Shown here: piece after piece, positions 1-37,770 of the stretch | Position numbering within the stretch: the stretch's first letter is position 1 | Layout of the letters: the number at the start of each line of letters is the position of its first letter | Origin: a virus | Reading direction: 5' to 3' (one strand) | UHGV virus genome: UHGV-1359486 | Length of the DNA: 37,770 bases | Notes under the pieces: generated by a model | The model's input: the letters and a program-made list of their open reading frames with translations, nothing else | Databases searched by the model: none | Told to the model about the DNA's origin: nothing | Position numbers and translations under genes: made by a program

Positions 1-1055
1 TGCACGACAAATTAAAGGCCGAACAATGGCGAATTGAGCAGGTAGGGGACTTCCCGGACTATACCTATGAGGAAGCCTGCCTGCGGTGGCTTGAGGAAAA
101 AGCAGATAAAAAATCGATAGAGGATGATAAGAACTTTATCACTTTCTGGCTTGAGTACTTCGAGGGTGTCCGGCTGAAGGATATAACCGAGAATGCCATT
201 TACAAGATCATCAGTAAGATGACAAACAAGCATGCTGAAAACTGCTGGAGAAGGAAAGCTGACACAGCAAAAAGGAAGGGAAAGGAGGTGCCGCTGTTTA
301 CATCGAAGCCTGTCACTACGGCTACAAAGGCGCGATACCTTTCTTTCATTAAGGCGCTACTCAGAGCGGCAGAAAGAGAATGGAAGTGGATAGAAAAGTC
401 ACCTGTGATAAAAATCCCATCTATTCGTGATCGGAGAGTCCGGTGGCTTGAGCCTGTCGAGGCGAAAAGACTGATTGATGAATGTCCTGAGCCATTAAAG
501 TCAGTCGTCAGGTTCGCTCTGTCAACCGGCCTGCGTCGTTCGAACATACTTAACCTTGAGTGGCAGCAGATAGACATGCAGCGGAAAGTGGCATGGATTT
601 ACCCTGAAGACAGTAAATCAGGTAAAGCGATCGGTGTAGCCCTGAACGATACCGCATGCAGGGTTTTGCGCAGCCAGATTGGTCGCCATCACAAATGGGT
701 ATTTGTCCACACTGATCCGTCATACAGGAATGACGGAACACCGGTTGCGGCAGTAAGAAAGATGAGGCCGGATTCTAATACAGCATGGAGAGCAGCATTA
801 AAAAGAGCCGGTATCGATGATTTCCGTTTCCATGACCTGAGACACACCTGGGCAAGCTGGCTGATCCAGTCTGGCGTTCCGCTTTCAGTGTTACAGGAAA
901 TGGGCGGGTGGGAGTCGATAGAAATGGTGCGCAGATATGCCCATCTGGCACCAAATCATCTTACCGAACATGCGAAGCAAATAGATGCCATTTTTGACAG
1001 TTACGTCCCAAATACGTCCCAAGGTGAAAAACTGGCATCGGGAGATAATCACTAA
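1..1055 (+). CDS. int: Tyrosine integrase, 3' part (continues from 37662..37770)
   Basis: Open from position 3 without start; C-terminal catalytic motifs HDLRHTWAS and MVRRYAHL (R...HxxR...Y); close to P22 Int as recalled. Confidence 0.9.
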
Positions 1056-1070
1056 GTCTTTGATAAGTAA

Positions 1071-1120
1071 TGGTGCCGGATACCGGATTCGAACTGGTGA
1101 CCTTTTCATTACGAAACCGA
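1071..1120 (-). other. attP core: 3' portion of a tRNA gene (anticodon-loop-like TTCGTAA, T-arm GGTTCGAATCC, acceptor 3' strand, CCA); no D-arm/5' half present
   Basis: Reverse complement reads ...TTCGTAATGAAAAGGTCACCAGTTCGAATCCGGTATCCGGCACCA, 16 nt after int stop; loop suggests anticodon CGU (tRNA-Thr), the site used by P22-family integrases. Confidence 0.6.
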
Positions 1121-1292
1121 AGATTTATTAAAATACAACACGTTACACCGCATCTTTTCTCGCTCTCACGTACCAAGATGCATAAAGTTACCCGCTGATA
1201 CGCAAGCATGCAAAATGTTCCGCGTCCCAAACTCGTCCCAATACCCCTTCTCCTGCTATACTCCCATCATCACCCACCACTCCGAATCTAAC

Positions 1293-1517
1293 ATGCACAA
1301 TATAGCCAACCTCCCACAAGACGAAAAAGACAAAATTAATGCCGATTTAGCCGCATCCGGTATCGCGTACAAAGAAAGACTCGGACTGCCGTATGATCTG
1401 TACGAAACAGAAAACCAGCAGCCCGAGCATTTACGCCCGTACTTCAGAGAGAGGCTGGAGCACTACAGGGAGATCGGGAAAAGGCTTCCGCGTGGGTTCG
1501 AGTATGAGAAGGAGTGA
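1293..1517 (+). CDS. Hypothetical small protein (74 aa) next to attP; start uncertain (track ORF 1215..1517)
   Basis: ORF only; no convincing Shine-Dalgarno. Confidence 0.3.
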   Translation: MHNIANLPQDEKDKINADLAASGIAYKERLGLPYDLYETENQQPEHLRPYFRERLEHYREIGKRLPRGFEYEKE

Positions 1518-1598
1518 TCATGTCACGTTCATGCTGACCTATCTTTACAGGAATGGTAACATGGTGTCATATATCTTGGTTTTTTTTGGACTATTTTA

Positions 1599-2663
1599 AT
1601 GATAACAAAAGAACAGAAAATTGACTGCATAAATTATGCAAAAGCAATAGGAATAATTGCGGTTGTTATTGGTCATTATAAAAATGACATGTTCGATGTA
1701 TTCAAACCTTATATGTATCATATGCCTTTATTTTTCTTTATTGGTGGCATTTTACATAACGATAAAAGAAGCATTACAAATAGCATTCTAACCACCATAA
1801 AAAAACATCATTTTTATATAGTGGTTAATTATATACTAATTGGGATATTTATAATTGCAGTAAATAACTCATTTGGAACGTCATTGAGAAACCCATTTGA
1901 TGAATCAATCATTGGAACGATAAAGTATGCGGTGACATGGAATTTCCATTCCAATACGCTGTTTTTGGTTGCATGGTTTTTGTTTGCATACTCTTTAATA
2001 TTTGTTTTATTTTCAGTGATGATTAACAAAATAACAAAAGGTAAATTACCTATATTTCTAATTTCAATTTTTCTTGGTGTTATTGGTTACTACGTGGCGG
2101 TTGAGATGTATGCTAAAAGTGAATTGTTTTATCTTAACTTATTAAGTCAGGTTTTGGTTGGGTCAATGTTTTATGGCATAGGAGTATCAATAAAGGATAG
2201 GTTTTTTTCATTGCTCAACCCATTCGCCTTTGTTGTTATATTAATGGCAATACTGACATTGGTTAAACTTGATTATATAGGAACGATAGGAATGTCGTGG
2301 AGTAATTACAATAAAGGGTTGTTTAACCTATTGTTTACACCAGTGGCATGTATTTATTGTGTATTTTTTGTTTCTTACTCATTATCAAAATCAATCGAAT
2401 TCAAGACACTATTGCTCATCGGAATGAATACAAAATCAATAATGTCATATCACTTAGCGGCATTTGTTATATTAGATATATTTTTCAGTTACATTGGGAA
2501 GTATGAAATATCTAACATAAGCGCATTGAATCATTTCAATACATACAAGGTATGGGTTATTTACGTTTTATTTTCAATATTCGCCTCAATCTATTGCGAG
2601 AAGATATTTATACATCTGAAAGATAAGTCGCTGCTAATCGCAAAAAGAAAACTATTGGATTAA
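1599..2663 (+). CDS. Acyltransferase family 3 integral membrane protein (O-antigen acetyltransferase-like; probable lysogenic conversion gene)
   Basis: 354 aa, about 10 predicted TM helices, N-terminal motif INYAKAIGIIAVVIGHY typical of acyltransferase_3; very AT-rich; same position as oac in Sf6-type phages. Confidence 0.6.
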   Translation: MITKEQKIDCINYAKAIGIIAVVIGHYKNDMFDVFKPYMYHMPLFFFIGGILHNDKRSITNSILTTIKKHHFYIVVNYILIGIFIIAVNNSFGTSLRNPFDESIIGTIKYAVTWNFHSNTLFLVAWFLFAYSLIFVLFSVMINKITKGKLPIFLISIFLGVIGYYVAVEMYAKSELFYLNLLSQVLVGSMFYGIGVSIKDRFFSLLNPFAFVVILMAILTLVKLDYIGTIGMSWSNYNKGLFNLLFTPVACIYCVFFVSYSLSKSIEFKTLLLIGMNTKSIMSYHLAAFVILDIFFSYIGKYEISNISALNHFNTYKVWVIYVLFSIFASIYCEKIFIHLKDKSLLIAKRKLLD

Positions 2664-2684
2664 GGGGCTGACGCCCCTTTTTCT
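2663..2684 (+). terminator. Rho-independent terminator between convergent acyltransferase and tailspike genes
   Basis: GGGGC-TGAC-GCCCC hairpin followed by TTTTT. Confidence 0.5.
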
Positions 2685-2689: not shown

Positions 2690-4621
2690 TTAGATGCATA
2701 TAATTTCAATAAAAAACATCATTCCTGATGTTAATTCATTTGGTTTTACTTTATTACCACTTGTATCAATTAAGTTAAAGTAAACCTCTCCTGACCCAGC
2801 TGATGAGTTGTTGTAAAATGGAGCCAGTGAAATTCCGTTTGCGTTGTTGCAACTGGTACACATCACATATGGGCGTTGATACTTAGTGTATCCAGGCATA
2901 AATTTGACCTTAAAGGCGTATGGATCGCCAGGAACGCTTTCTGCAGAATAAACTCCTGACGCAATATAGAATGAATTATCTACAACGATACCTGACCCGC
3001 CCTGACTAACAAGGCACCCAATTCTCCTGTTTAGTGAGGCGACACTTCCCTCTGACTTGCGCCACTGGTATGAGTTATTTCTTGAAATGACTGGTGTCGC
3101 CATATTTACATATTTAAGTGGTATGTTTCCGCTAATATCATTATCGCCAGCATCAACCCCTTTTATTGTTATTATATTATCTTGCTTCTCAGGATATCCG
3201 GCATAGTCCCAACAGAAAAAATCAATTCTATTTTGCCCTGCACCATCAATAAATAGAGAGCTAACGGCATCACCTCCCCACTGCTGTACATAGTCACATT
3301 GAATTTCAGCTATTTGTGTGTTGTATGGATATGCATCCGTAGTTATAGGGACGCACTTGATGGTTATGCCATGCAAAGCCCCCTCAACCCTTATGTTTCT
3401 AAAAATACATGACGTTATCCATGATCCACCATCTGAACCCGCTGTGCCTTCCGCTGCAACATCCTCCTTTTTAGGCTGCACGGCGAGTACCTGTAATGCA
3501 TACTCACCAAACCCTAAAGTCAGGTCAGTGAACTTCCCCCAACAAATGCTATTCCATCTGCGGCGGTCGTCAACATACTGGCCTCCGTCCTTGCTTAAAT
3601 CAGCACGAAGCATGAGTGAAGTACCGGTCTTGTCTTTCGAGCAACCAACCAGGTTAAGGTTACTGATCGTTATGTTGCGGAGGTTATTTTTACCGATAAC
3701 CAATGCAACAGAATGATTCCATTCTGTTAGGTCACTATCGACGGCTATTCTCGCCTTATTACCATGCCCTTCTGTGCTGAATTCAATATTGTCATTTTCA
3801 AACACAAACCAATCGTTACGTAGTGAGCGGTTAATTAACTGAGCTCCGCCAGAAAAACGGAAGTTTTTCTTAACCTTGACCTGGCTGTTGCAATCAAATG
3901 ACATTTTAGGGATCAGGATGGTGTTTACTGCTGCAATTTCCTGAAGGCCACCCAGAATACTTCCGATATCAGTATTCTCCTGAGCGCCAACAGAAAGGAT
4001 ATCAGCGCCGTTTGTAACATCCAATGTTGCAGTCAGTCCGTTATCCAGGATGACGTTTACCAGCGTGTCTGGCTGATTATTTGTGATTGCATAAATGCCC
4101 TCACCACCATCACCAGGAGAGTAATATCCGCGAGTTTTGACCGTAGCCCCAAGTGGAAGTGATGTATCCGCTACCATTGCAGCGACATTATCGAAGACGC
4201 GGAGATAGTTTTCAGTCAGGCCACCTATCATTTTATATCCATCGTCCCCGCCTAACTCCCCCCTTATCCTTACATCAAATTGATCAGGGTCATACTTCAA
4301 AACATTAGGATAATAGAACTGCTGAGCTCCGTATGAATCATACACCGCCATAGAATGGCCTTGTATGGTAACGAACTTCGCAATCTGCCCGTTATATACC
4401 GGATAGCCAGCTTGGTTAATAATCAGAGGCTGAGTTGCGGGAATGTGCGTTCCATCTTCGTTTTCAAGATACACCTGAATTTGGTTTTCCGGTATGGTGG
4501 GATCGGTGTCAATTTTCCCGATGAAGATTTTCCCGTTACTCGCCGCCTGGAATTTGCGTGCAAGCGTGAACAACTGCGAAGGCATGCTCACTACAACATT
4601 AGGAATAATTTGTTCTGACAT
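2690..4621 (-). CDS. Tailspike protein (P22 gp9-type N-terminal head-binding domain + divergent beta-helix receptor-binding domain)
   Basis: N-terminus [13 protein letters not shown]...[12 protein letters not shown]...[10 protein letters not shown] matches P22-family tailspike head-binding domain; ATG at 4619-4621 with GGAG 6 nt upstream (track ORF starts at TTG 4633). Confidence 0.85.
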
Positions 4622-4805: not shown

Positions 4806-6917
4806 TCACTTGGACTTTTCTCCCTGCATCACTGCAGTGGTGGCCTGTGATATCTGAGAGATAAGGCGATCATATGCTGTGCTACCCTTTGGGGTGTTCG
4901 CCAACCTAAGCATCATGTTACGTATCGGCTTGCTTTCATATACTCTAGCAAGCCCCCCATAAGTGGCAAACGCGGCAGTTAAAGCACCGCCATTCCCCAG
5001 CACGTCAGCTGCCACTCCCGTCGGTATACCAACCTGCAAAAGCTCCTGCCCGGTAGGGGTAACCGTGCCAGCTCTGGATGCCCTTTGTGTCTGCTCAAGG
5101 TATTTTTTCAGCCCATTCAGATATTGCTTCTCGTTACCTTTAAACAGGATACCTGTCTGCGCTGAAAGCCGGTTTATTTCATTCAGGAACTTCTCCGGAC
5201 TGCCGCCTGATTTCTCATAGGCTTTGCCGATAACAGACGCTCTTGCCGCATTCCTTCCGCGGCTGTCGAGTGATCTGTATAGTTGCTGAACCTCACTTTT
5301 CTTATTACTGAAAAGGAGGTTGTTAGCAACTTCCGGCGTGAGTTCGCCTTTCTGCAGAACGGATTTCAGGCGCGTATTATTCACCACCTGAGCCTCATGA
5401 GCGTATGCCGCATTCGCCTGGCGATAACGATCTGCCACTCTGGCACCGAGGTTATCAGACACAGACTGATTGATATCTTTTGACATAGCGTCATATACAC
5501 GGTTAACCGCCCCTTGAGACTGAGAAGGCCACACCATGCGGTCACCTTTCACATCCTGTCTGAACTGCGTTCTCAGGTCTCTCATCAGGCTAAAATCAGC
5601 GCCTTTCACCAACTCATCACGATAAGTCTGTAATTTATTGATGGTTTGAGTGTCAGCCGCGCCGCCAAGCCGCGCCAGTCGACTCATTTCATTATCGATA
5701 GCTGTGATGGCTTGTGTCGGGTTTATGGTGCCTACCGACTGCATTGCGGAGTCTACTTCAGACATGCGCTTACCTGCCGCCTGTTTAACCTTGCTGGTCT
5801 GTCTCTGAAGGCTCTGAACCACTTCATCAGGTGATGGAGCGGCAAAGCTTTCTGAGTATTCCTGAATCAGTTTGCTCCTTGCTTCCTGCTGATTTCTGCG
5901 TAGTGAGCCAGTGCCGGTAACGGGTATTTTCTCAGCCAGTGCCTGAGCTGAACGACCAGAGAATGTGCCTGGCTGAACAGCATCAGTGGTCATCAGCGGT
6001 GCGTTATTAGCATCGGCAAACTTAACTGCCTCTGCCGCCTCCGGTGACATCTTTCCTTTTATTGCCCGAGCCGCAGCGCCGACAATATTTTCAAATGCCT
6101 TACCGCCGGTGCCTAGAACACCAGATAATCCAACCTGAAGCGGGTCAATATCAGTTCCGCCCATGTAACTTGTGGTGCCCTGAATTAACGCATCCGTACC
6201 GGCTGCGCGAAGACCAGCGCTGACCAATCCGCCTGCACGTCCAGCCGGTGTATATGATGCTGCCAGAGCCGCGCCAGATGCCACATCCTCGGGAGATAGG
6301 CCGGGTTTGTTAAGGGAATACCTTCTTTCAGGTAAAGAAACTATTTTTTCACCATTCTCCCCATCAATCACCACTCCGCCGCTTTCTTTTGCCACCCTTT
6401 CTGCCATTTCTGCGAGCTCTGGTATCCATCCCATTTCAACAACTCGTTTATTCGCAGGCAGGGTAACAATAGCGTTTCCTTTCACATCATAGGAAATTGT
6501 CGCCCCCATGTTTTTCAGCATGATTTCCTGATCCTGCTGATTACCCATCATCTGAGCCCAGGCAACTTTGGCGGCATCTTTTGTCATGGACTTCATTTCT
6601 GGCGCATCAGATATTGATGGAAGGTTTTCAATTTCTGGTGTCATGCGGCTCTCGCCGGTAACCATGTCTTTCACATTAGCCCAAAATCCTTCCGGCTGCT
6701 GCGCTTCCGGCTGCTGCACCGGAGCAGGCTGCTGCTCTTGCTGCACTGTCTCAACCGGATATGCAGTGTAAAACTGCTGCCTTGCCTCATTCACAGCTTC
6801 ACCCGCCCGCGGGGCAACAACGTCATTAAAGTATTGCTCCTGCGCTTCAGCTCTTTGCTGAGGTGAAAGAGCTTGATATTGCTGAGAGGCAATAACGTCT
6901 TTCCATGCCTTAGCCAT
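4806..6917 (-). CDS. Ejection (internal virion) protein, P22 gp16-like
   Basis: 703 aa; last of the 7-20-16 ejection-protein trio by synteny; start overlaps gp20 stop by 1 nt. Confidence 0.75.
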   Translation of the reverse strand: MAKAWKDVIASQQYQALSPQQRAEAQEQYFNDVVAPRAGEAVNEARQQFYTAYPVETVQQEQQPAPVQQPEAQQPEGFWANVKDMVTGESRMTPEIENLPSISDAPEMKSMTKDAAKVAWAQMMGNQQDQEIMLKNMGATISYDVKGNAIVTLPANKRVVEMGWIPELAEMAERVAKESGGVVIDGENGEKIVSLPERRYSLNKPGLSPEDVASGAALAASYTPAGRAGGLVSAGLRAAGTDALIQGTTSYMGGTDIDPLQVGLSGVLGTGGKAFENIVGAAARAIKGKMSPEAAEAVKFADANNAPLMTTDAVQPGTFSGRSAQALAEKIPVTGTGSLRRNQQEARSKLIQEYSESFAAPSPDEVVQSLQRQTSKVKQAAGKRMSEVDSAMQSVGTINPTQAITAIDNEMSRLARLGGAADTQTINKLQTYRDELVKGADFSLMRDLRTQFRQDVKGDRMVWPSQSQGAVNRVYDAMSKDINQSVSDNLGARVADRYRQANAAYAHEAQVVNNTRLKSVLQKGELTPEVANNLLFSNKKSEVQQLYRSLDSRGRNAARASVIGKAYEKSGGSPEKFLNEINRLSAQTGILFKGNEKQYLNGLKKYLEQTQRASRAGTVTPTGQELLQVGIPTGVAADVLGNGGALTAAFATYGGLARVYESKPIRNMMLRLANTPKGSTAYDRLISQISQATTAVMQGEKSK

Positions 6918-8305
6918 TAATCACCCCATAATGATGAATATCCGGATTGCTGCTGAGCCGGTTGCTGTTTTGATGACGGCTTACTACCACCGACATCCGC
7001 GTTGTATTGCTGGTTATAGTTGTTGGTGTATTCCTGAATTTCCATCAGAGACTGCTTCATGGCATCCGGGCTTGAGTAGTCCATCTGCGGCATACCCTGG
7101 AAATACATTTTTGCCTCTGCCACGGTGTTAATACCACTCGCCCCCATATCGCGAGCGGCCGCAATACCCTGGTTCTGCATTCTCCCCTGTACGCGCTGGG
7201 CGGCGGTATAAAACTGACGCTGTTCTTTGCCGTTCCACCGGCTGCGGTAATCAGCACCCACCGCCGGAGCACCAACACCGCCGGAAACGCCCGTCATGAA
7301 GTCCAGTTGTTCAGGATCAGCATTGAGAATGGCATCGATGTCTTTCTTCATGGCATAGTTGGTTGCACTCGCTGATGAGCTTGCAGGAGCTGCTATCGAG
7401 TTCGCTGGCACTCGCACGGTGTTGCCGTTATTGTCTATCCCTTCGTAATATGCGTTGGCTCCGGATCCGTGAACCTTGCCAACAATCCCGACAGTGCGGC
7501 CATCAGAGAGCTGAACAGTTCGCTCCCCCTCTCCGCCACCGGAAGACATTGACCGCTGCATAGCCATATCCTGTCCGCGGCGGGTAGTTGATGCTGATAT
7601 ATCCTGACCACGTCTCGCTGTTGCCGCGCTGATATCCTGACCACGGCGGGTGGTTTCGGCAGAAAGCCGGTTACCTTCTGCGGTAATGTCCTGCCCTCGC
7701 ATGGTTACTTTGCGATTCTCTTTATCGCCAATAACATCAAAGTATTTTTCAGGAGTGAGCGCACTCATGCCGATGGTGTCAGCCAACTCAACTGCACCTT
7801 TCGGGTCAGCCTTAGCCAGGCGCTGCGCTTCTTTCGGGTCAATACCGAGACGCATCAGTTCAGCCGCGTTTTTGGCAACAAACTGATCACCTGTTCCGGC
7901 ATTAACTGCCATGCGAAAGTTTGCGGCCACATTACCGAGTGATTCGCGGGTGTCAGCGGAGATTCCTTCCATGCCTTTCCCGATCTGCTCATTCATTTCG
8001 GGATACTCAGCAAAGAGTTGGCGCATAGATGCAGTATCACCGGCAGCGCGGGCTGTTCCATATTTCTGGAAAAACTCCTGCTGTCTCTGTGCCTGCTGGT
8101 CAGCCTGGTACATTTGAGCGACCCCATACAGTCCCTGCAATCCCTGCAATACAGGGTTATTGGCACCTGAACTCTGAATATCATTATTTTCCCGGATGAG
8201 AGACAGTGCTGTGTTTGCGTCAGTTGCGCGGGGCGCGTTGCTATTCACCCCGCCAATTCCGCCGAGAAGACTTCCGGCAATGCCGCCCTGATTCCATGTT
8301 GCCAT
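6917..8305 (-). CDS. Ejection protein, P22 gp20-like
   Basis: 462 aa, Gly/Ala/Gln-rich with internal RRGQDIS repeats; synteny. Confidence 0.75.
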   Translation of the reverse strand: MATWNQGGIAGSLLGGIGGVNSNAPRATDANTALSLIRENNDIQSSGANNPVLQGLQGLYGVAQMYQADQQAQRQQEFFQKYGTARAAGDTASMRQLFAEYPEMNEQIGKGMEGISADTRESLGNVAANFRMAVNAGTGDQFVAKNAAELMRLGIDPKEAQRLAKADPKGAVELADTIGMSALTPEKYFDVIGDKENRKVTMRGQDITAEGNRLSAETTRRGQDISAATARRGQDISASTTRRGQDMAMQRSMSSGGGEGERTVQLSDGRTVGIVGKVHGSGANAYYEGIDNNGNTVRVPANSIAAPASSSASATNYAMKKDIDAILNADPEQLDFMTGVSGGVGAPAVGADYRSRWNGKEQRQFYTAAQRVQGRMQNQGIAAARDMGASGINTVAEAKMYFQGMPQMDYSSPDAMKQSLMEIQEYTNNYNQQYNADVGGSKPSSKQQPAQQQSGYSSLWGD

Positions 8306-8314
8306 AACTCCCCC

Positions 8315-9007
8315 TTAAAACAGACTGCCGAGTAACCCAAGGCCGGCACCAATACCGGCACCCCACGGAGTCGAAGCGCCAATAGCGCTAGCAATACCGC
8401 CGCCCAACATAGCCCCTGATGCACCTCCGCTGATTGCCTGCTGGAAACCAGACGGGCGATTAGCATTCGCTGCCGCCAGTGCTGCCTGCTGCTGATAAAG
8501 AGAGCCCATATTGTTGGCGTAGTTCTGCCCGGCGTTGGCCTGCCCCTGTAATGCACCGAGGCCGATATTTGCCAGATTCTGAGCGCTGTTCATCTGATCA
8601 CCAAGCCATGACTGACCGAGAGTAGGGGCAATTGCTGCGAGTTGGTTCGCAGTTGCTGTAGACCCAAGCCCACCCGTCGCTTCAGCTGCATTCAGAGCCT
8701 GATAGCGAGACTGGTCAGCCTGCCTCTTGTACATGTCTGAGCCATAGAAACCCTGCAGCGCCTTATCCTGACCTTCAAGTGTTGACAACCCCTGCATCTG
8801 AGTAATGTACTGCTGTGCTAATGGCGTGAATGGAGCAAGGTTTGTCATAATCCGGTTGAATTGAGCGTCCTGCAAATCGGCGGAATGCCTCATTGCATCA
8901 GCCTGAGCGCCTGCGCCATTATCGCCGCCACCCTTACCGCCTTTTTCAGGGAACAGAGGTTCTTCACCGGCAATCTTTCGTGCCAGTTTAAAAATATATC
9001 CGGACAT
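8315..9007 (-). CDS. Ejection protein, P22 gp7-like
   Basis: 230 aa with Gly/Ala-rich C-terminus; synteny and size match P22 gp7. Confidence 0.75.
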   Translation of the reverse strand: MSGYIFKLARKIAGEEPLFPEKGGKGGGDNGAGAQADAMRHSADLQDAQFNRIMTNLAPFTPLAQQYITQMQGLSTLEGQDKALQGFYGSDMYKRQADQSRYQALNAAEATGGLGSTATANQLAAIAPTLGQSWLGDQMNSAQNLANIGLGALQGQANAGQNYANNMGSLYQQQAALAAANANRPSGFQQAISGGASGAMLGGGIASAIGASTPWGAGIGAGLGLLGSLF

Positions 9008-9009
9008 AA

Positions 9010-9471
9010 TTATCTCCGCTGATTACCGAGGAATTCGGTTAATTCTTCACGCGTTGCTGAGTAGAAAGTGACGTCATCAACGCCTTTGAAATACTTTCTG
9101 ATGGTGCCAACACGGCCAAGTCCGATACTTGCGCAGTACATCTGGCCGTGCCGGAATTTACGCGCTGCAAATGATGTCACGCACTGGACGTAAGTTGATG
9201 AGAGGATGAGCTGCCAGAATGCCAGGCCGATATCCTTGCTGAACCCCCTGACCTCTGGTAGGTACATAGCATGACACTCGAACGTCATCGGCTGCACTTC
9301 TTCGTAATACACGATGCCGCCGAACTGCCCGTGCACGTCAACCTCAAAATGTCTGCGTTCCGGTTTATAATCGAACCCGTCCCCGTTGTTACTCCCGGCA
9401 ATAATGTCAGGGTGGTTACCAACGGCCTCAATCAGGTCGATATTCCTCGTTGGTTTGAATGTGATCATCAT
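9010..9471 (-). CDS. P22 gp14-like virion assembly/ejection-associated protein
   Basis: 153 aa; position between tail needle and gp7; ATGA overlap with upstream gene. Confidence 0.65.
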
Positions 9472-20048: not shown

Positions 20049-20049
20049 A

Positions 20050-26969: not shown

Positions 26970-26971
26970 GA

Positions 26972-28391: not shown

Positions 28392-28434
28392 GTTCCAGCA
28401 CATATCCGGAACGGGCTAAATTGTGTAAAGAGCG
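28392..28434 (-). promoter_or_regulatory. nutR-like site: boxA CGCTCTTTACACAA + hairpin with loop AUAUGUG and U-run
   Basis: Read on minus strand between cro and cII. Confidence 0.45.
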
Positions 28435-28443
28435 GTGCTGATT

Positions 28444-28644
28444 TTATTTTTTGCCTTGTTGTAGCCACGCCGCGCTACATTTCAGGGCTTTTGATAATTC
28501 AAAAATGAATCGTGGGCGCTTAGTTGAACCAGACTCAATCGCCTGGATAGATTGCTGCTTAATGCCAACAAGCTCAGCGAGTTGAGACTGAGTCAGATTC
28601 AACTCACAACGCCGAGCTTTTACACGTTGAGAGATGGTTTCCAT
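28444..28644 (-). CDS. cro: Cro-like repressor
   Basis: 66 aa XRE-type HTH (LTQSQLAELVGIKQQSIQAIESG); divergent from cI across operator region. Confidence 0.8.
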   Translation of the reverse strand: METISQRVKARRCELNLTQSQLAELVGIKQQSIQAIESGSTKRPRFIFELSKALKCSAAWLQQGKK

Positions 28645-28661
28645 ACTTTCTTATCTCCTTT

Positions 28662-28724
28662 ATACAGTTTTATCTGTATTTAATAACAGATACACCTGTT
28701 TGTCAAATACAGTTTTTATTGTGA
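28662..28724. promoter_or_regulatory. OR operator region: three 18-bp sites (28662-28679 ATACAGTTTTATCTGTAT; 28684-28701; 28707-28724) with PR (-35 TTGACA, -10 TTAAAT on minus strand)
   Basis: Inverted-repeat half-sites ACAG/CTGT read directly between cro and cI. Confidence 0.7.
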
Positions 28725-28752
28725 AAATCCCTTTATTACAGGGGGTGGAAAA

Positions 28753-29385
28753 ATGAGTCTTGCCAGCAGAGTAAAAAGTCGTCGCCTTGCGCTCGAAATG
28801 ACACAAACAGAGGCAGCAGAAAAAGCAGGAATTAAACAGCAGTCGTGGGCGTCTATTGAAGATGGTAAGACTGTTAAACCTCGTAATATAATTGCGATTG
28901 GCGCTGCATTGCAGTGCGACCCAGGGTGGCTGATGACGGGAGATAATATTCAGCCAATCAGCGAGGTAAATACACGGAAGATACCTCTAATTAGTTACGT
29001 ACAGGCGGGAAACTTGGCTGAAAGCATACCGATCAGTGATTGTGACGGGTCTTTTGAGTACGTTCTTACCGATCAGGACTTATCTCATAATGCGTTCGCC
29101 CTTCGTATTGAAGGTGATTCAATGGAGCCTGATTTTAAAACCGGCGATGTAGTGATTATCGATCCTGAGATAGAGCCGCATCCAGGTGAGTTTGTTGTCG
29201 CGTCTAATGGCGAGCAAGAGGCAACATTCAAGAAATACAGGCCTACCCATGTCATGATTAATGGTGACCAGCACTACGAGTTAGTCCCACTCAATGACGA
29301 CTATCCAGTGCTCGATAGCGAGAAAATCAATCTCCGGATAATCGGTACAATGGTAGAGCACCGAATTTACCGAAGAAAAAGGTAA
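28753..29385 (+). CDS. cI: CI-type repressor (HTH + S24 LexA-like autopeptidase domain)
   Basis: 210 aa; N-terminal HTH; GDSMEP (Ser) and FKKY (Lys) catalytic dyad context. Confidence 0.9.
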   Translation: MSLASRVKSRRLALEMTQTEAAEKAGIKQQSWASIEDGKTVKPRNIIAIGAALQCDPGWLMTGDNIQPISEVNTRKIPLISYVQAGNLAESIPISDCDGSFEYVLTDQDLSHNAFALRIEGDSMEPDFKTGDVVIIDPEIEPHPGEFVVASNGEQEATFKKYRPTHVMINGDQHYELVPLNDDYPVLDSEKINLRIIGTMVEHRIYRRKR

Positions 29386-29398
29386 CACGCATTTAAAC

Positions 29399-29422
29399 CA
29401 ACCCGCTTCGGCGGGTTTTTTT
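29399..29422 (+). terminator. Rho-independent terminator after cI
   Basis: CCCGC-TTCG-GCGGG followed by TTTTTTT. Confidence 0.65.
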
Positions 29423-29471
29423 GTATCTAAATTCCAATGAAAATCACCCGATTACAGTTTCATCGATAAAA

Positions 29472-29515
29472 ATACAGTTTTACCTGTTGACCAAATACAG
29501 TTTTACCTGTATCTT
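29472..29515 (+). promoter_or_regulatory. OL/PL: two operator sites (29472-29489, 29495-29512) overlapping -35 TTGACC and -10 TATCTT
   Basis: Same 18-bp operator family as OR (ATACAGTTTTACCTGT). Confidence 0.65.
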
Positions 29516-29555
29516 TTAATCATCAACGGCACGGAGCCAAAGATAAAACGGACTT

Positions 29556-29600
29556 AGCTCTTTTACAATCGGGAACCTGATCTGAATAAGAGTCAGATCA
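29556..29600 (+). promoter_or_regulatory. nutL-like site: boxA-like AGCTCTTTTACAA + 8-bp stem hairpin with loop AUAAGAG
   Basis: Read directly downstream of PL; loop resembles nutR hairpin loop. Confidence 0.45.
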
Positions 29601-29842
29601 CCACTGAGTGGTTTTTGGGATTGGTGAATGCCGGGTGCTGACCGGCAAGTGTAAGACCTAATGGGTGGTAGATATCGCTGGCTGTAGTCGGTTGAGTAAG
29701 CGCGTTGCAAGCCAGCACCGACCCAATAAACGACATGCGAAACCTTCGCCCCGGTGAAACTCCGGTGTCAACTAGCATGGCGCATAGACAAGCAGGAAAT
29801 CAGCACCTGCCACCAATCACCAAAAATTACTCAGGAGGCAAT

Positions 29843-30142
29843 ATGGCAACAATTACTGTTATTCCAAAGAAAGACAACGCGAAGAGCCGCCGGCTAGCAA
29901 AGCAAATGGCGTTCTGGGACAGAAAGCGTGAGGAGTATGCAGCGATGCCTAAAAGCCGCTCAGTGGAGGAGATTTTTGATTCAGTATTTGCGCCAGCGAA
30001 AGAAGAACGTCCGGCGCTGACACTGAAACCAACACAGTATTACCCGTCCGGTGATAACTGCTGCCTGCCTAAAGTGGCAATTTTCAGCGGGGTTAAGGTC
30101 AAGCAGCCGAAAGGTGATTTCGGGATTACAGTGCGAGCATAA
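29843..30142 (+). CDS. N-like antiterminator (99 aa)
   Basis: AGGAGG RBS; N-terminal Arg-rich motif KSRRLAKQMAFWDRKRE resembling lambda N ARM; first gene after PL/nutL. Confidence 0.6.
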   Translation: MATITVIPKKDNAKSRRLAKQMAFWDRKREEYAAMPKSRSVEEIFDSVFAPAKEERPALTLKPTQYYPSGDNCCLPKVAIFSGVKVKQPKGDFGITVRA

Positions 30143-31764: not shown

Positions 31765-31991
31765 ACGCATACGCAGCACAGGATGCTCAGGAAGAGCGAC
31801 GGCTGGAGCATGCAGCATGGCAGGATGCCGTGGACATGGAAGTTAGCGAACTGGCAACGGATGCTTTTAATAAACTCCCTCAGCGCCTTCTGGATGAAGT
31901 AAGCGAGGACCTGCAAGAGGCGATATGGAAATCACTTTTTGACGTTATTGGCAATATCAGGAGTTCGTATGCAGCCAGGTATCTACGATGA
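31761..31991 (+). CDS. Acidic helical protein (76 aa) immediately upstream of the recombination nuclease
   Basis: AGGAGG RBS; acidic composition. Confidence 0.5.
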   Translation: MNAYAAQDAQEERRLEHAAWQDAVDMEVSELATDAFNKLPQRLLDEVSEDLQEAIWKSLFDVIGNIRSSYAARYLR

Positions 31992-32787
31992 CATCAGCAA
32001 TGATGACTATCACAACGGCCCCGGGATAAGTAAATCGCAGCTGGACCTTATCGAACAATCACCGGCTGACTTTATCTGGCAACGGAATGCCCCGGTGGAT
32101 GAGGAAAAAATAAAGGCTCTGGATTTCGGGACCGCTGTTCACTGCCTTTTGCTTGAGCCTGATGAGTTCAATAACCGGTACAGGATAGGGCCGGAAGTAA
32201 ACAGACGCACATCCGCAGGGAAGCAGGAAGAAAAGGAATTCTTCGAAATGTGCGAAAAAGAAGGAATCACGCCAATCACCCATGACGACAACAGGAAGTT
32301 GATGATCATGCGGGATAGTGCCATGGCCCACCCTATCGCCAAATGGTGCCTTGAAGCTGAAGGAAAAGCCGAGAGCAGCATTTACTGGAATGACAAGGAA
32401 ACGGACATTCTTTGCCGGTGCAGGCCGGACAAACTGATAGGACAACACGGATGGATTGTCGATGTGAAAAGCACCGCGGACATGTCCCGCTTCGAACGCG
32501 CTTTTTACGATATGCGCTATCACGTTCAGGACGCGTTTTACTCAGACGGATATAAGGACCTGTCCGGAGAGTTACCGGTGTTCGTATTTCTCGCGGTCAG
32601 CACAACAATCGACTGCGGAAGATATCCGGTCCGTGTATTCATTATGGATGATGTGGCAAAGGATGCCGGACGGTCCGCATACAAACAAAATCTCAGAACA
32701 TACACCGAGTGCATTAAAACGGATGAATGGCCCGGTCTGAGAACACTATCACTGCCACGCTACGCAAAGGAACTGAGAAATGAGTAA
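31969..32787 (+). CDS. RecE-type exonuclease (nuclease domain only; PD-(D/E)XK)
   Basis: GIYDDISNDDYHNGPGISKSQL, SSIYWND, CRCRPDKL, GWIVDVKSTAD, YHVQDAFYSDGY match the C-terminal nuclease domain of E. coli RecE as recalled. Confidence 0.8.
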   Translation: MQPGIYDDISNDDYHNGPGISKSQLDLIEQSPADFIWQRNAPVDEEKIKALDFGTAVHCLLLEPDEFNNRYRIGPEVNRRTSAGKQEEKEFFEMCEKEGITPITHDDNRKLMIMRDSAMAHPIAKWCLEAEGKAESSIYWNDKETDILCRCRPDKLIGQHGWIVDVKSTADMSRFERAFYDMRYHVQDAFYSDGYKDLSGELPVFVFLAVSTTIDCGRYPVRVFIMDDVAKDAGRSAYKQNLRTYTECIKTDEWPGLRTLSLPRYAKELRNE

Positions 32788-33589
32788 CCCACCAATCGCA
32801 CAGGCGGACCTGCAAAAAGCACAAGGGACCGCGGTTAAAGAAAAAACAAAAGACCAGCAGCTAATCCAGTTCATAAACCAGCCAGGCATGAAAGCTCAAC
32901 TAGCAGCCGCCCTGCCGAGGCATATAACACCGGACCGCATGATCAGGATTGTCACCACCGAGATACGGAAAACTCCATCACTGGCAACCTGTGACATGCA
33001 AAGCTTTATCGGCGCTGTTGTTCAGTGCTCGCAACTTGGCCTTGAGCCAGGTAACGCATTGGGCCACGCCTACCTCCTTCCGTTCGGCAATGGTAAAGCG
33101 GCATCAGGGCAATCAAATATTCAGTTAATTATCGGATATCGCGGCATGATCGACCTCGCCCGCCGATCCGGTCAAATTATCAGTATATCGGCCCGCACTG
33201 TGCGCGAAGGTGACAGTTTTCATTTTGAATATGGCTTAAACGAGGACCTTACACACGTACCCGGCGAAAATGACTCGGGCCCAATCACCCACGTTTATGC
33301 AGTGGCCCGCCTGAAAGAAGGTGGTGTTCAGTTTGAGGTTATGTCTTTCTCTCAGATTGAGAAGGTCCGCGATTCAAGCAAGGCCGGTAAAAATGGTCCA
33401 TGGGTATCTCACTGGGAAGAAATGGCGAAAAAGACCGTCATCCGCCGCCTGTTCAAATATCTGCCGGTATCTATCGAGATGCAGAGGGCCGTCATTCTGG
33501 ATGAAAAAGCAGAGGCCAACGTGGACCAGGAGCATGCATCTATTTTTGAAGGTGAGTACGAAACTGTATCGCCGGAATCCGCGGGGTAA
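32780..33589 (+). CDS. recT: RecT-family single-strand annealing protein
   Basis: 269 aa; LLPFG, IGYRGMIDLARRSG motifs; coupled downstream of the nuclease. Confidence 0.85.
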   Translation: MSNPPIAQADLQKAQGTAVKEKTKDQQLIQFINQPGMKAQLAAALPRHITPDRMIRIVTTEIRKTPSLATCDMQSFIGAVVQCSQLGLEPGNALGHAYLLPFGNGKAASGQSNIQLIIGYRGMIDLARRSGQIISISARTVREGDSFHFEYGLNEDLTHVPGENDSGPITHVYAVARLKEGGVQFEVMSFSQIEKVRDSSKAGKNGPWVSHWEEMAKKTVIRRLFKYLPVSIEMQRAVILDEKAEANVDQEHASIFEGEYETVSPESAG

Positions 33590-33591
33590 TT

Positions 33592-33852
33592 ATGGGCGAC
33601 ATGGGCGATATATTCCGCGCAATGCGTGAAGATGCCAAAGAACGTAAGCAGCAGCGATTAAAAGAAAATACAGGGAAGTTATCAGGAATTGATATTCCGT
33701 TTACAAAGGATGGAAGCGGAACAATTCATTTTTCAACACCAGCCGGAAAAGTTCTGTTTTACCCCACCACAAATAAAATTCAGCACAAGCAAAAGGTCAC
33801 ACGCGGCAATCTGGAAAAGGCTGTCTCGCTGGCTAAAAGTCTTGGTGCATAA
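33592..33852 (+). CDS. Hypothetical protein (86 aa)
   Basis: ORF with ATG. Confidence 0.5.
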   Translation: MGDMGDIFRAMREDAKERKQQRLKENTGKLSGIDIPFTKDGSGTIHFSTPAGKVLFYPTTNKIQHKQKVTRGNLEKAVSLAKSLGA

Positions 33853-33859
33853 CCCCACC

Positions 33860-33878
33860 GTTTCAGGATGAAGCGTAA
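33860..33878. repeat. 19-bp direct repeat GTTTCAGGATGAAGCGTAA, copy 1
   Basis: Identical copy at 34129-34147. Confidence 0.9.
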
Positions 33879-34140
33879 GCCAGAGGAAACAATCATGTGC
33901 ATACAGGAAATGAATGTACGGGTTTACTTTGCCCCTACCAGAAACCGCCGGTATTTCAGCAAGGATGCTGCGATAAAGGCAGAGGTAAAGGCGCGAATAT
34001 TCATGAAATACCCGTTTGAGAGGCCCGAATCCGATACGGGATATCCGGGATATTACATATCAGAAGACAGGCCTGAATTTTATCGCAGAGCGGTGAGATA
34101 TCTGACCTATCTGATTAAAAAGCAAATGGTTTCAGGATGA
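33868..34140 (+). CDS. Hypothetical protein (90 aa; alternative start ATG 33896) flanked by 19-bp direct repeats
   Basis: ORF begins and ends inside the two repeat copies. Confidence 0.45.
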   Translation: MKRKPEETIMCIQEMNVRVYFAPTRNRRYFSKDAAIKAEVKARIFMKYPFERPESDTGYPGYYISEDRPEFYRRAVRYLTYLIKKQMVSG

Positions 34141-34147
34141 AGCGTAA
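34129..34147. repeat. 19-bp direct repeat GTTTCAGGATGAAGCGTAA, copy 2
   Basis: Identical to 33860-33878. Confidence 0.9.
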
Positions 34148-34171
34148 TGCAGGGATGCTGAGGAAATAACA

Positions 34172-34963
34172 ATGACTGCTTACTATAACGAAATCGACCC
34201 GTTCGCTGCTCAGTGGTTACGGAATCTCATTGCTGCCGGCCATATAGCGCCGGGTGTAGTGGACGAAAGGAGTATTGAAGATGTCACACCAGATGATTTA
34301 CGCGGATTCACACAATGCCACTTCTTCGCCGGTATCGGGGTGTGGTCACTCGCACTGCGCCGTGCAGGATGGCCGGATGATAAACAAGTCTGGTCAGGAA
34401 GTTGTCCGTGCCAGCCTTTCAGCGCGGCAGGCAAAGGAAATGGGTTTGCTGACGAGCGGCACCTTTGGCCTGCATTCTTCCACCTCATCAGCGAGTGCAA
34501 ACCTGGCGTTATCTTTGGTGAACAGGTTGCAAGCAAAGACGGCCTCGGGTGGCTCGACCTTGTTCAAACTGACTTGGAAGCAACGAACTACGCCGTCGCC
34601 GCGGTCGATTTATGCGCTGCGGGCTTCGGTGCGCCGCATATCAGACAGCGATTGTTCTGGGTGGGCAACGCCAACAACCAGGGAATGGAAGGAATGCGGG
34701 GATGTGAGTCAGTCATTCTTCCGGAAGGACGGGAAGATGCGAAACGACACGCTATACCGCCAGCTATGGCTGCACATGTTTGGGATGGATGGCAGGCCGT
34801 CACGGGAGCAGATAAAAAATCTCGAATGCTGCCACCTGACTTTGGCGAGAGAACTGATGATGCTGCCGGTAGAGTTGGAAAACTCCGCGCCTACGGAAAT
34901 GCCATCGTCGCGCCGGTCGCGGAAGAATTTATAAGGGCTTATATGCTGATAACAGAGGAATGA
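34172..34963 (+). CDS. DNA (cytosine-5)-methyltransferase-like protein, orphan, short target-recognition region
   Basis: 263 aa; motif I FFAGIGV, motif IV SCPCQPFSAAGK, ENV-like FGEQV, QRL, motif X YGNAIV; no adjacent nuclease gene. Confidence 0.6.
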   Translation: MTAYYNEIDPFAAQWLRNLIAAGHIAPGVVDERSIEDVTPDDLRGFTQCHFFAGIGVWSLALRRAGWPDDKQVWSGSCPCQPFSAAGKGNGFADERHLWPAFFHLISECKPGVIFGEQVASKDGLGWLDLVQTDLEATNYAVAAVDLCAAGFGAPHIRQRLFWVGNANNQGMEGMRGCESVILPEGREDAKRHAIPPAMAAHVWDGWQAVTGADKKSRMLPPDFGERTDDAAGRVGKLRAYGNAIVAPVAEEFIRAYMLITEE

Positions 34964-34968
34964 ATATG
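34953..34968. repeat. 16-bp direct repeat CAGAGGAATGAATATG, copy 1 (second copy 35240-35255)
   Basis: Read directly; each copy supplies RBS and MNM start of the following gene. Confidence 0.9.
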
Positions 34969-35232
34969 TCGCGGCCAATCGACTTAATAGCAGATATCAC
35001 GGATGAGTATATCGCTAGGCATTTTGAAGGGACGAACTACGGGCACACCAACTATCGGGACATCGTTGGCAAAGGATGTCTGAATGCTATGGCCGGATAT
35101 CACAACGGATATACCACACAGTGCATATTGATAAAAATGGGGCTGACCACAGAGAAATTACGGCTGACAAAGCGCGGTCGTGAATTTCTGTTCTGGCATT
35201 TTAACTATCAACCGGTTAATGGGCGGAAATAA
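34960..35232 (+). CDS. Hypothetical protein (90 aa)
   Basis: ATGA-coupled to methyltransferase. Confidence 0.5.
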   Translation: MNMSRPIDLIADITDEYIARHFEGTNYGHTNYRDIVGKGCLNAMAGYHNGYTTQCILIKMGLTTEKLRLTKRGREFLFWHFNYQPVNGRK

Positions 35233-35239
35233 TTCATCG

Positions 35240-35255
35240 CAGAGGAATGAATATG
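35240..35255. repeat. 16-bp direct repeat CAGAGGAATGAATATG, copy 2
   Basis: Identical to 34953-34968. Confidence 0.9.
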
Positions 35256-35537
35256 GCAATAGTTCAGTATTACGTTGCGTGTAAAAAAGATGAAGACCCG
35301 GCATCCGTCACTGAGATTTTTCGCTGTGAATTATCAGACGACCATAATTTCAGTGCTGATGATGACGACTTCGAATTTTGTATAGAAACATGCGCAGAAG
35401 ATTTTCACGACAGATGCGACGGGTGGGAGCGTCATTGGCCTTTATTATTCATGCTGTGGATTGATGGGAAATATATCGGCATGTTTGAAGTTGAACGCGA
35501 ATATGAGCCAACATTTTCAGCCAACAAAGTTAATTAA
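35247..35537 (+). CDS. Acidic hypothetical protein (96 aa)
   Basis: D/E-rich (SDDHNFSADDDDFEF). Confidence 0.5.
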   Translation: MNMAIVQYYVACKKDEDPASVTEIFRCELSDDHNFSADDDDFEFCIETCAEDFHDRCDGWERHWPLLFMLWIDGKYIGMFEVEREYEPTFSANKVN

Positions 35538-35555
35538 GCAGATTCAGGAGGGGTG

Positions 35556-35849
35556 ATGGATAGTAATAATATAGAATTTTTACAGCCAGATGATTTAAAT
35601 AATCTGAAACGGTTCAATGAAAATTGCGAAGATAGTCAAGATTACGACGTACCAAAAGAAAAAATGCACCGCATGGCTAAATTGGGAGTTGTGCGTCGTC
35701 ACAGTAGAAACTATTACAGCATAACATCATTCGGAATGTATTTACTTAATCAAGGTGACGAACTATATAAATTGCCACTTAAAACGCAGTCTGATTACGA
35801 TGCAGAATTCCGATTTAATTTAGCCAATAAAATTCGAGGCTCATCATGA
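35556..35849 (+). CDS. Hypothetical protein (97 aa from ATG; track starts at GTG 35553)
   Basis: AGGAGG RBS; AT-rich. Confidence 0.5.
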   Translation: MDSNNIEFLQPDDLNNLKRFNENCEDSQDYDVPKEKMHRMAKLGVVRRHSRNYYSITSFGMYLLNQGDELYKLPLKTQSDYDAEFRFNLANKIRGSS

Positions 35850-36139
35850 TGGGTATATCACGACAGCAGTTTGAGGAATACATTAAATTGCATACCGACT
35901 CAGCAGGGCTGGAGCTGAAATTAAAAAAAGCAAATAACGGATTAAATTACGCTAACCGGGATGTCGATTTAATGTGGATTGGCTGGCAGGCATCGCGTGA
36001 AATCTTAACTGTTGAATTGCCTTTATCTCTTCACGTAAGAGCCTATGACTATTACACGGACGGCTATAACAGTGGCGTGGATTACTGTGAAGTTATATTG
36101 GAATCTGCGGGAATAAAAGTAATAAGAACCGACCAATAA
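35846..36139 (+). CDS. Hypothetical protein (97 aa)
   Basis: ATGA coupling. Confidence 0.5.
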   Translation: MMGISRQQFEEYIKLHTDSAGLELKLKKANNGLNYANRDVDLMWIGWQASREILTVELPLSLHVRAYDYYTDGYNSGVDYCEVILESAGIKVIRTDQ

Positions 36140-36306
36140 AATCATCGGGGAATAACAATGACAATCGGATTTGTATTACTACTGGTAATGCACGGTGCTG
36201 CTGTGCCTGTTACCGATGATATTTATACGCTCGAGGAATGTGAGAGCCGCGCAGTGCAGGTAATGGCTGTGCGGAATGTTGAATTAGTGTGTGCGGAGGT
36301 TTTCAG

Positions 36307-36675
36307 ATGAGACAAATTAAAATAAGCTCTGGCGCGTGGCAAAAAGATTTAGAAATGGTTGTCACTGTTATCGATGAAGATAAATTTAAAACTCAGTGTG
36401 AGCAAGTTAATAAATTTTATTGTGACGCAGAGTATAGAGCTAAGAAACACGGAAGCCATGAAAAAGCGGGGTTCGCCATGTTCTGCGCTGAGTGTTTTCA
36501 ACAAATGGCATTCAATAACTTTAAAGACGAAGAATGGCTGACTGAGCAATTCGACTGGTCTAAAGATAAAGGAATTGAAGGGTATCCTTCGTTAGATGAT
36601 ATGGGCATTCGAATCGATGAAATTGAGCCATGGTTTATTGATTACGACGAAATGGAAATTACAGGATGGTGTTAA
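36307..36675 (+). CDS. Hypothetical protein (122 aa from ATG; track 36289)
   Basis: GGAGG RBS 8 nt upstream. Confidence 0.5.
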   Translation: MRQIKISSGAWQKDLEMVVTVIDEDKFKTQCEQVNKFYCDAEYRAKKHGSHEKAGFAMFCAECFQQMAFNNFKDEEWLTEQFDWSKDKGIEGYPSLDDMGIRIDEIEPWFIDYDEMEITGWC

Positions 36676-37056
36676 ATGAACAAATATAGTGACAAATCAG
36701 ACTTTGAGATTAATAAGGCTGTGGCTGTTAATATTAATGGCACTGACTCTGTTTTAGAAAAGTTCGGTAGAATATATATCAGTGATGGCGATAGAGGTGC
36801 GATGGTGAGCTTCTCCCCATGCAACAACCCAGCGGACGCATGGCCTATTATTTTAAAAAACAGAATCAGCATTATCATTCCAGGGAATGAATATAGTGAT
36901 GGTTACAGCACTCCATTTGCTGCAAGTGGATTTGATGATGTTTCTCATATAACCAGAAATACATATTATACAGATGAGGAATCATTCAATCAAAACCCAC
37001 TACGCGCAGCAATGGAAGTATTCCTGATGATGAAAGAGGCGGAGAATGGTAAATAG
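36676..37056 (+). CDS. Hypothetical protein (126 aa)
   Basis: ORF with ATG. Confidence 0.5.
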   Translation: MNKYSDKSDFEINKAVAVNINGTDSVLEKFGRIYISDGDRGAMVSFSPCNNPADAWPIILKNRISIIIPGNEYSDGYSTPFAASGFDDVSHITRNTYYTDEESFNQNPLRAAMEVFLMMKEAENGK

Positions 37057-37228
37057 TTACCACTGCGAAGCATGCAACAAGCCACTTAATGAGGATGAGC
37101 TGCTTTATTATGGATTCACCTGTGAAAAATGTGAACGTCATTTCATTACTGAGCATGAAGGAAATAAATTCAAAACCGCAATATCGCTCATCAGGCTCTA
37201 TTTCAGAAAGGTAATTTACTCAGCGTAG
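37046..37228 (+). CDS. Small zinc-ribbon protein (60 aa)
   Basis: CEAC...CEKC motif pairs. Confidence 0.45.
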   Translation: MVNSYHCEACNKPLNEDELLYYGFTCEKCERHFITEHEGNKFKTAISLIRLYFRKVIYSA

Positions 37229-37235
37229 GTGACCA

Positions 37236-37445
37236 ATGACACCACAGGAAGCAGAGAACGGACGCAGACGAATAGCAAGGGAATGCCTGAAGGAATTAAT
37301 GCAGTACACATCAGACGAACAACACACCGCAATACTCGACAAATACACACCGAAATTCAAACCACTTAATCACCTGCGCTTTCCGGCAAAGAGAGTGCTC
37401 GGGTATTACGTGCGTACGTTACAGAAGGAGATGAAGGATGGATAA
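37236..37445 (+). CDS. Hypothetical protein (69 aa)
   Basis: ORF ends overlapping xis start. Confidence 0.45.
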   Translation: MTPQEAENGRRRIARECLKELMQYTSDEQHTAILDKYTPKFKPLNHLRFPAKRVLGYYVRTLQKEMKDG

Positions 37446-37770
37446 AGTCACGATGACACGCGACGAGGCTGCTAAATTTATCGGCGTAAGCCCTGATACG
37501 CTTACGTCATGGTGCCGCGCCGGACGCATTTCGTATCAGCGGAAAGACCCGTTCAAAAAGAAGTCACCCTATCTGTTTACAGAGTCAGCCTGCCTTGCGG
37601 CACTGAGCAATCCGATCAACACTATCGCCGAGAGCGAGATTGATGTGAAAGGAGATCACAAATGTCAATCTTCAAACGTGGTAACTCTTGGTATTGCGAC
37701 TTCGCGACACCTGGCGGCAAGAGAATTAAAAAGTCGCTTGGTACGTCCGACCGGAAGCAAGCCCAGGAGC
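37438..37770 (+). CDS. xis: Excisionase, 5' 111 codons (frame closes at window positions 13-15)
   Basis: GAAGGAG RBS; HTH-like [41 protein letters not shown] resembles P22 Xis; overlaps int start. Confidence 0.7.
37662..37770 (+). CDS. int: Tyrosine integrase, 5' part (continues at 1..1055)
   Basis: [48 protein letters not shown] continues in frame into window position 1. Confidence 0.9.

Follow-up and report, generated by a model that had tools for sequence, protein, structure and literature searches.

The virus genome UHGV-1359486 is a stretch of DNA of 37,770 nucleotides (the window, by which the whole stretch that was analysed is meant), in which the genes for a phage integrase (int) and an excisionase (xis) are cut by the ends of the record. 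This raises the question of whether the window is a complete phage genome whose circular map has been opened inside a gene, a prophage cut from a bacterial chromosome, or a contig that has been closed in error. The original prediction was that it is a whole phage genome written as a circular permutation, with a phage attachment site (attP) and no host flanks. From the results described below, the window very probably holds the circular map of a temperate P22-like podophage of Morganella morganii exactly once (one unit length, 37,770 bp), with the circle opened arbitrarily within int.

The int/xis junction across the window ends

The last 400 nt of the window were joined to the first 1100 nt and translated. 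In the joined sequence, int occupies 37662..37770 and 1..1055 and encodes a protein of 387 aa (388 codons with the stop). Its ATG at 37662 lies 8 nt 3' of a GGAG ribosome-binding site, and its reading frame leaves the window end after 36 codons and one nucleotide, resumes at base 1 and reaches the stop at 1053-1055. The xis gene (37438..37770 and 1..15) begins with an ATG at 37438 and encodes 115 aa; 111 whole codons are present at the window end and the gene is completed by TGC ACG ACA AAT TAA at 1-15. The starts predicted for both genes, the 388 codons of int and the closing TAA of xis at 13-15 after wrapping were all reproduced by this joining and translation.

The joined Int matches PF00589 (Phage_integrase) over residues 185-355 (E 4.1e-45) and the PHROG families phrog_10426 (residues 1-192) and phrog_1 (residues 5-377), the latter two in single stretches that span the junction at residue 36/37. 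It aligns with the Int of phage P22 over 387 to 387 residues with 68% identity and zero gaps, and the earlier description of the product as P22 Int-like therefore applies to its full length. The junction is located within ELHDKLKAE, a block identical in the two proteins. The catalytic motifs GLRRSN, HDLRHTW and VRRYAHL are the same as those of P22 Int, the conserved Arg, His-x-x-Arg and Tyr motifs of the lambda-family tyrosine integrases are present, and the N-terminus (the arm-binding domain region) can be aligned with both P22 Int and phrog_10426. The joined Xis covers positions 1-115 of the 117 in the excisionase family phrog_2907 and aligns with P22 Xis over 1-116 with 40.5% identity. The xis and int genes overlap by 124 nt in the window, and an equal overlap is found in the P22 RefSeq record (xis 22393-22743, int 21353-22516).

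The step from 37770 to 1 is crossed base for base, without gain or loss, in five integrated relatives, namely three IMG/VR contigs (L002, L003 and L088) and two M. morganii genomes (L004 and L005); in L002, for example, it corresponds to 8125→8126. Logan contigs, which are assembled from public sequencing runs, were retrieved by exact-protein look-up. Three of them, possibly from the window's own source, are 100% identical to the window through the junction, from 36866 to 1671 (SRR5677835), from 36101 to 1586 (SRR5677784) and from 36903 to 1300 (SRR5677787). The ends thus join seamlessly against eight sequences, as expected of a circular permutation, and the three contigs in effect provide the sequence spanning end to start that had been proposed as a check. 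Two further Logan contigs are 100% identical over 157-2654 (SRR5677834) and 2620-12286 (SRR5677844, which carries the exact tailspike product). Together, the exact contigs of the five runs cover 157-2654, 2620-12286 and 36101-1671, and 12287-36100 lies outside their cover.

No 12-mer is shared between the first and the last 300 nt and no direct repeat connects the ends, so neither an assembler overlap nor a terminal repeat is present. The guanine-cytosine (GC) skew is unbroken over the junction and tracks the direction of transcription. The int/xis junction is genuine and not a chance read-through. The opening point is located about 1 kb from the attachment core, and its distance from the pac-equivalent position is about 18.5 kb; as it matches neither of these sites, it is an arbitrary cut made by the assembler or the depositor. 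The circle of the P22 RefSeq record (NC_002371) is likewise opened within a gene (gene 3), whose coding sequence crosses the record start.

The attachment site and the thrW tRNA gene

Similarity between the window and the five integrated relatives stops at window position 1115 in all five, and a tRNA-Thr(cgt) gene on the minus strand was found by ARAGORN to span the equivalent point in four of them (L002-L005). These two observations identify 1071-1115 as the 3' 45 nt of the host gene thrW. Beyond 1115, host DNA follows in the relatives, whereas further phage DNA follows in the window. The presence of phage DNA on both sides of this point marks the site as attP and not attL or attR, in agreement with the original prediction. 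The predicted lack of host flanks was also borne out, as the core is internal, int is split by the window ends and no host DNA was seen. The attP is intact, internal and away from the window ends, and its type is confirmed as thrW-targeting by its position just 3' of int and by the 3' part of tRNA-Thr(CGU) that it holds.

The outer boundary of the core is also visible in other contigs. In IMG/VR contig L084, the first base corresponds exactly to window 1116, and the stretch 1116-1511 is shared with the window at 95%. The reciprocal (attL) junction is represented by contig L091, which was obtained via look-up of the theta-like protein discussed below and consists of a host gene, a terminator, the core and then the P' arm of another phage. 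The host flank of L091 is identical to window 1057-1070, and the shared att segment may therefore comprise 59 nt (the core plus 1057-1070). An exact search with the 45-nt core in IMG/VR returned a single copy per contig.

The octamer CGTCCCAA is present in four copies in the window (1.14 expected window-wide), all of them in attP and two in each arm. This layout is that of arm-type Int sites, to which Int would be expected to bind. The region is colinear with the attP region of P22, and the phages P22, ST64T and ST104 are reported to integrate into thrW (PMC2629481).

Gene content, host and alternative explanations

The genome map (Table 1) was built from PHROG and Pfam scans of the open reading frames (ORFs) and from tblastn of 53 P22 proteins. 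The P22 proteins matched in 23 of the 53 cases, and the matches are colinear. All 13 P22 virion-assembly proteins match the window in order with 37-85% identity, and the order of the cluster is small terminase, large terminase, portal, scaffold, coat, gp4, gp10, gp26, gp14, gp7, gp20, gp16 and tailspike, with which PHROG agrees. No essential P22-type module is absent and none is duplicated. The claim that the window is a whole phage genome was upheld, as the P22 functions in the virion, lysis, late control, replication, immunity, recombination and integration are all represented and follow the order of P22.

Table 1. Coordinates of the features in the 37,770-nt window, with the basis of each assignment.
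Feature	Position	Strand	Basis or remark
int, remainder	1..1055	+	Core-binding and catalytic domains
xis, end	1..15	+	4 codons and TAA; frame differs from that of int
P arm repeats, 2 × CGTCCCAA, 11 nt apart	1004..1022	+	Inside the 3' end of int; candidate arm-type Int sites
attP core	1071..1115	-	3' 45 nt (anticodon loop to CCA) of host tRNA-Thr(CGU) gene thrW
P' arm, with 2 × CGTCCCAA at 1223-1241	1116..1251	+	Octamer search; L084 boundary
DNA polymerase III theta-like gene (HolE / phage P1 Hot type)	1293..1517	+	PF06440, 2.6e-25; accessory (moron)
Acyl_transf_3 membrane acyltransferase, 354 aa	1599..2663	+	PF01757, 5.5e-14; no PHROG match
Tailspike, P22-type head-binding N-terminal domain	2690..4621	-	PF09008, residues 8-118, 3.4e-65
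gp16-, gp20- and gp7-like ejection proteins	4806..9007	-	phrog_770, 917, 598, 651 (set including gp14-like); P22 tblastn
gp14-like protein	9010..9471	-	Same PHROG set (phrog_770, 917, 598, 651); P22 tblastn
Tail needle (gp26-like)	9468..10334	-	PHROG set phrog_1030, 578, 637; P22 tblastn
gp10-like and gp4-like head-completion proteins	10334..12221	-	PHROG set phrog_1030, 578, 637; P22 tblastn
Coat	12482..13774	-	71% identity to P22
Scaffold	13774..14688	-	81% identity to P22
Portal	14703..16790	-	60% identity to P22
Large terminase	16790..18289	-	85% identity to P22
Small terminase	18264..18755	-	82% identity to P22 gp3
pac-equivalent position within small terminase gene (candidate)	18467..18488	-	Alignment to P22 gene 3
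Lysis cassette: holin, endolysin, Rz-like spanin	19596..20687	-	phrog_785, 1768, 13
Q-like late antiterminator	21541..22044	-	PHROG set phrog_943, 171, 319 (Q and nin)
NinG and NinB with small nin ORFs	22229..22828, 23898..24344	-	PHROG set phrog_943, 171, 319
DnaB-type helicase	25602..26971	-	PHROG set phrog_19, 345; P22 gp12, 65%
O-like replication initiator	26972..27808	-	PHROG set phrog_19, 345; P22 gp18, 51%
cII-like, cro-like	27995..28321, 28444..28644	-	Immunity region (27995..30142)
cI	28753..29385	+	Immunity region
N-like antiterminator	29843..30142	+	Immunity region
RecE-type exonuclease	31969..32787	+	Early-left operon (31969..37445)
RecT	32780..33589	+	Early-left operon
DNA methyltransferase	34172..34963	+	Early-left operon
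DUF2528, NinX-like and small ORFs leading into xis/int	36289..37445	+	Early-left operon
xis, 5' part	37438..37770	+	phrog_2907, PF12728 HTH_17
int, 5' part	37662..37770	+	N-terminal arm-binding part; continues at position 1

The map is lambdoid and in P22 order. The minus strand carries the rightward immunity genes and the replication, nin, Q, lysis, terminase, head, ejection and tailspike genes, and the plus strand carries cI, N and the recombination genes, xis and int, followed by attP and then by the theta homologue and the acyltransferase gene as putative prophage-expressed accessory genes. By analogy with P22, recombination between the attP core and the 3' part of thrW would be carried out by Int together with host IHF and would restore the tRNA gene, and Xis would direct excision. 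The terminase would start at a pac site in the small terminase gene and fill the heads by the headful mechanism, also on the model of P22. Headful packaging would produce virion DNA that is terminally redundant and circularly permuted, so that reads from circles, concatemers or virions would all assemble to a closed circle. The sequenced DNA may have been an excised circle, a concatemer or permuted virion DNA, which have the same sequence and are indistinguishable by sequence alone.

The host is Morganella morganii, judging from the 99% and 98% identity of Int in the M. morganii strains Mm1 and MMsCG, respectively, and from the recurrence of the exact cI (147 blocks) and the exact small terminase (72 blocks) in the index of a public assembly collection. 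The genes around the exact cI and small terminase vary from case to case, a sign of heavy mosaicism among the Morganella lambdoid prophages.

An integrated prophage cut from the chromosome would be bounded by attL and attR or by bacterial DNA. Integrated copies of closely related int-xis-attP cassettes are indeed present at thrW in Morganella genomes, but a prophage would begin and end at the core (1071-1115) and would have int intact at one end. In the window, phage arms border the internal core on either side, int is divided between the two ends and becomes whole when they are joined, and no host-like segment is found beyond the 45-nt tRNA fragment, which leaves this origin with a vanishingly small likelihood. 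It is also highly improbable that an incomplete or chimeric linear contig was falsely circularised by an assembler through a short repeat. The near-identical modules that are common among the mosaic Morganella lambdoid phages, such as the cI and small terminase genes counted above, can mislead assemblers. The junction, however, lies in a single gene, is gap-free against P22 Int and is crossed without a break by eight other sequences; the genes form a full set in colinear order with those of P22, and no module is lost or repeated; and the contigs of the five runs are exact over their cover given above, which does not include 12287-36100.

A small chance is left to the window being one unit cut in silico from a head-to-tail multimer, either a concatemer formed in replication or a double lysogen in tandem, with an attP-like junction where its two copies meet. 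The sequence of such a unit would be identical to that seen, and P22-type phages replicate through concatemers. Where the circular map is concerned, the unit is the same object. A tandem lysogen would in addition need host junction contigs, none of which surfaced in the exact-Int look-up, and Logan contigs from three runs run straight through attP. A phage-plasmid was considered and rejected; the window has a full int/xis/attP set, its close relatives occur as integrated prophages, and the PHROG and Pfam scans of the ORFs revealed no genes for partition or plasmid replication.

Several observations weigh against the interpretation of the window as a complete circular unit of a P22-like M. morganii phage. 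If the Logan runs are the window's own source, their contigs do not count as independent evidence. The exact phage was not found in integrated form, and what the integrated relatives have in common with the window is limited to the int-xis-attP cassette and mosaic pieces. Exact 40-mers from the tailspike gene and from the ORF at 20757-21332 are absent from IMG/VR, and an acyltransferase 40-mer is absent from the JGI metagenomes. No high-identity match was obtained in the phage collection searched, where the best megablast cover is at most 25% of the first 25 kb at about 74% identity. The pac-equivalent 22-mer is identical to P22 pac at just 14 of 22 nt, and the genome, at 37.8 kb, is at the small end of the range of the group (HK620, 38.3 kb).

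Relatives, accessory genes and significance

As one unit of a circular phage genome, the window shares with P22 (Lederbergvirus P22, NC_002371) the gene order of the virion, lysis, replication and integration functions, an Int of the same length, an Xis of 115 aa (116 aa in P22), an attP just 3' of int that holds part of the thrW tRNA-Thr(CGU) gene, and the head-binding domain of the tailspike. The one-way nucleotide similarity to P22 is only about 25%, and the immI region (mnt/arc/ant) and sieA of P22 are not present in the window. A RecE-type exonuclease and RecT are found in place of P22 erf/abc, and the theta gene and the acyltransferase gene in place of gtrABC. The Q, cI, cro and N of the window are of types other than those of P22, its endolysin is a small M15-type peptidase, and its host is Morganella, whereas that of P22 is Salmonella.

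The best nucleotide matches, in the terminase and portal genes (about 78%), are to the Proteus phages vB_PmiP_Brookers (OL539469) and vB_BPM-V3 (PQ539422), which are P22-like phages of the Morganellaceae. In Brookers, as in the window, a theta gene is located between the genes for the tailspike and the integrase, and the Int of V3 is 73% identical to that of the window. Brookers differs in its one-way nucleotide similarity of about 22%, in the orientation of int relative to theta and in the presence of a tRNA-Met gene, and both Proteus phages differ from the window in the early regions and in the receptor-binding part of the tailspike. The tailspike N-terminus of the E. coli phage HK620 (38,297 bp) has about 76% nucleotide identity to that of the window. 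HK620 and the Shigella phage Sf6 are small P22-like serotype-converting phages with genomes of 38-39 kb, in which O-antigen-modifying genes (oac in Sf6) are located between attP and the tailspike gene. The integrases, att sites (argW in Sf6) and hosts of Sf6 and HK620 differ from those of the window, and neither phage is known to carry a theta gene. In the early region, only short matching pieces were found in the phage collection.

The P22-like and lambda-like prophages of M. morganii (for example, those of Mm1, NZ_VKKS01000001; MMsCG; IMG/VR UViG_2619619210_000007) share an int-xis-P arm-core cassette that is 95-99% identical and located at thrW. Their structural genes are up to 91% identical (L090), and exact matches for the cI, small terminase and theta proteins occur among M. 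morganii prophages and public assemblies. They differ from the window in being integrated and mosaic, with other early genes, other conversion genes (gtrABC) or other tail types, and none matches it end to end. The exact portal and RecT proteins had no record in the look-up. The genus criterion of the International Committee on Taxonomy of Viruses is about 70% nucleotide identity over the whole genome, and the similarity of the window to P22 (0.25) and to Brookers (0.22), as rough one-way values and not formal VIRIDIC ones, falls short of it. By these comparisons, the phage is P22-like in architecture, undescribed, and outside Lederbergvirus by the nucleotide criterion.

The cI gene is flanked on both sides by a 31-nt direct repeat (81% identical) at 28686-28716 and 29474-29504. 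These operator-like repeats are at the positions expected for the operators OR and OL, respectively. The segment 30143-30536 (about 390 nt 3' of the N-like gene) contains no ORF of at least 45 aa. An ORF of 191 aa at 20757-21332 on the plus strand is antisense to its neighbours between the holin and Q genes; it matches phrog_33893 (unknown function) and, weakly, DUF5868, and is likely an accessory gene. A tRNA-Gly(tcc) gene of 97 nt was called by ARAGORN within recT (32908-33004, minus strand) and is probably a false positive, as no Rfam family reached the gathering score anywhere in the window.

The two genes beside attP are located in the sole low-GC stretch of the window (1001-3000, 33-39% GC). 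This stretch was considered as a host-like island and rejected, as it holds accessory conversion genes that are also found inside the prophages of relatives. The exact 74-aa theta-like product was found in 15 public contigs. The theta gene and its upstream region (window 1252-1559) are 96-98% identical among prophages with different tail types, and the block is directly 3' of the P' arm in every case. In L089/L090 (about 9750-9800), the tRNA gene whose 3' end adjoins the theta cassette is a different one (TGGTACGCCCTACAGGATTCGAACCTGTGACC...), which suggests that the cassette has moved between phages of differing integration specificity. On this pattern, the theta block acts as an accessory cassette shared among prophages. 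For phage P1 Hot, it has been proposed that a theta subunit of Pol III supplied by the phage is of benefit to the lysogen.

The slot of the acyltransferase gene is occupied by gtrABC in P22 and in L089/L090. The acyltransferase is a candidate O-antigen acetylase, and its gene a candidate for serotype conversion (lysogenic conversion); the exact protein had no record in the exact-protein look-up. A broader proposal, which is put forward tentatively and is rather doubtful, is that the window is the first complete genome to represent an undescribed species, and by the nucleotide criterion probably an undescribed genus, of M. morganii P22-like phages, in which the theta block may be a mobile, prophage-expressed cassette that is retained for its benefit to the lysogen.

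A circular map opened within a gene is routine, and temperate headful-packaging phages are commonly recorded in this way; the phage itself is an ordinary, though undescribed, member of a well-known group. The record should be annotated as circular, as int and xis are otherwise lost as two truncated end ORFs and a linear treatment risks mislabelling the phage as integrase-less or as a fragment. As the core of attP is known to correspond to the 3' part of thrW, and the host to be M. morganii, the boundaries of such prophages become predictable in clinical Morganella genomes, and the acyltransferase gene beside attP is a candidate serotype-converting gene.

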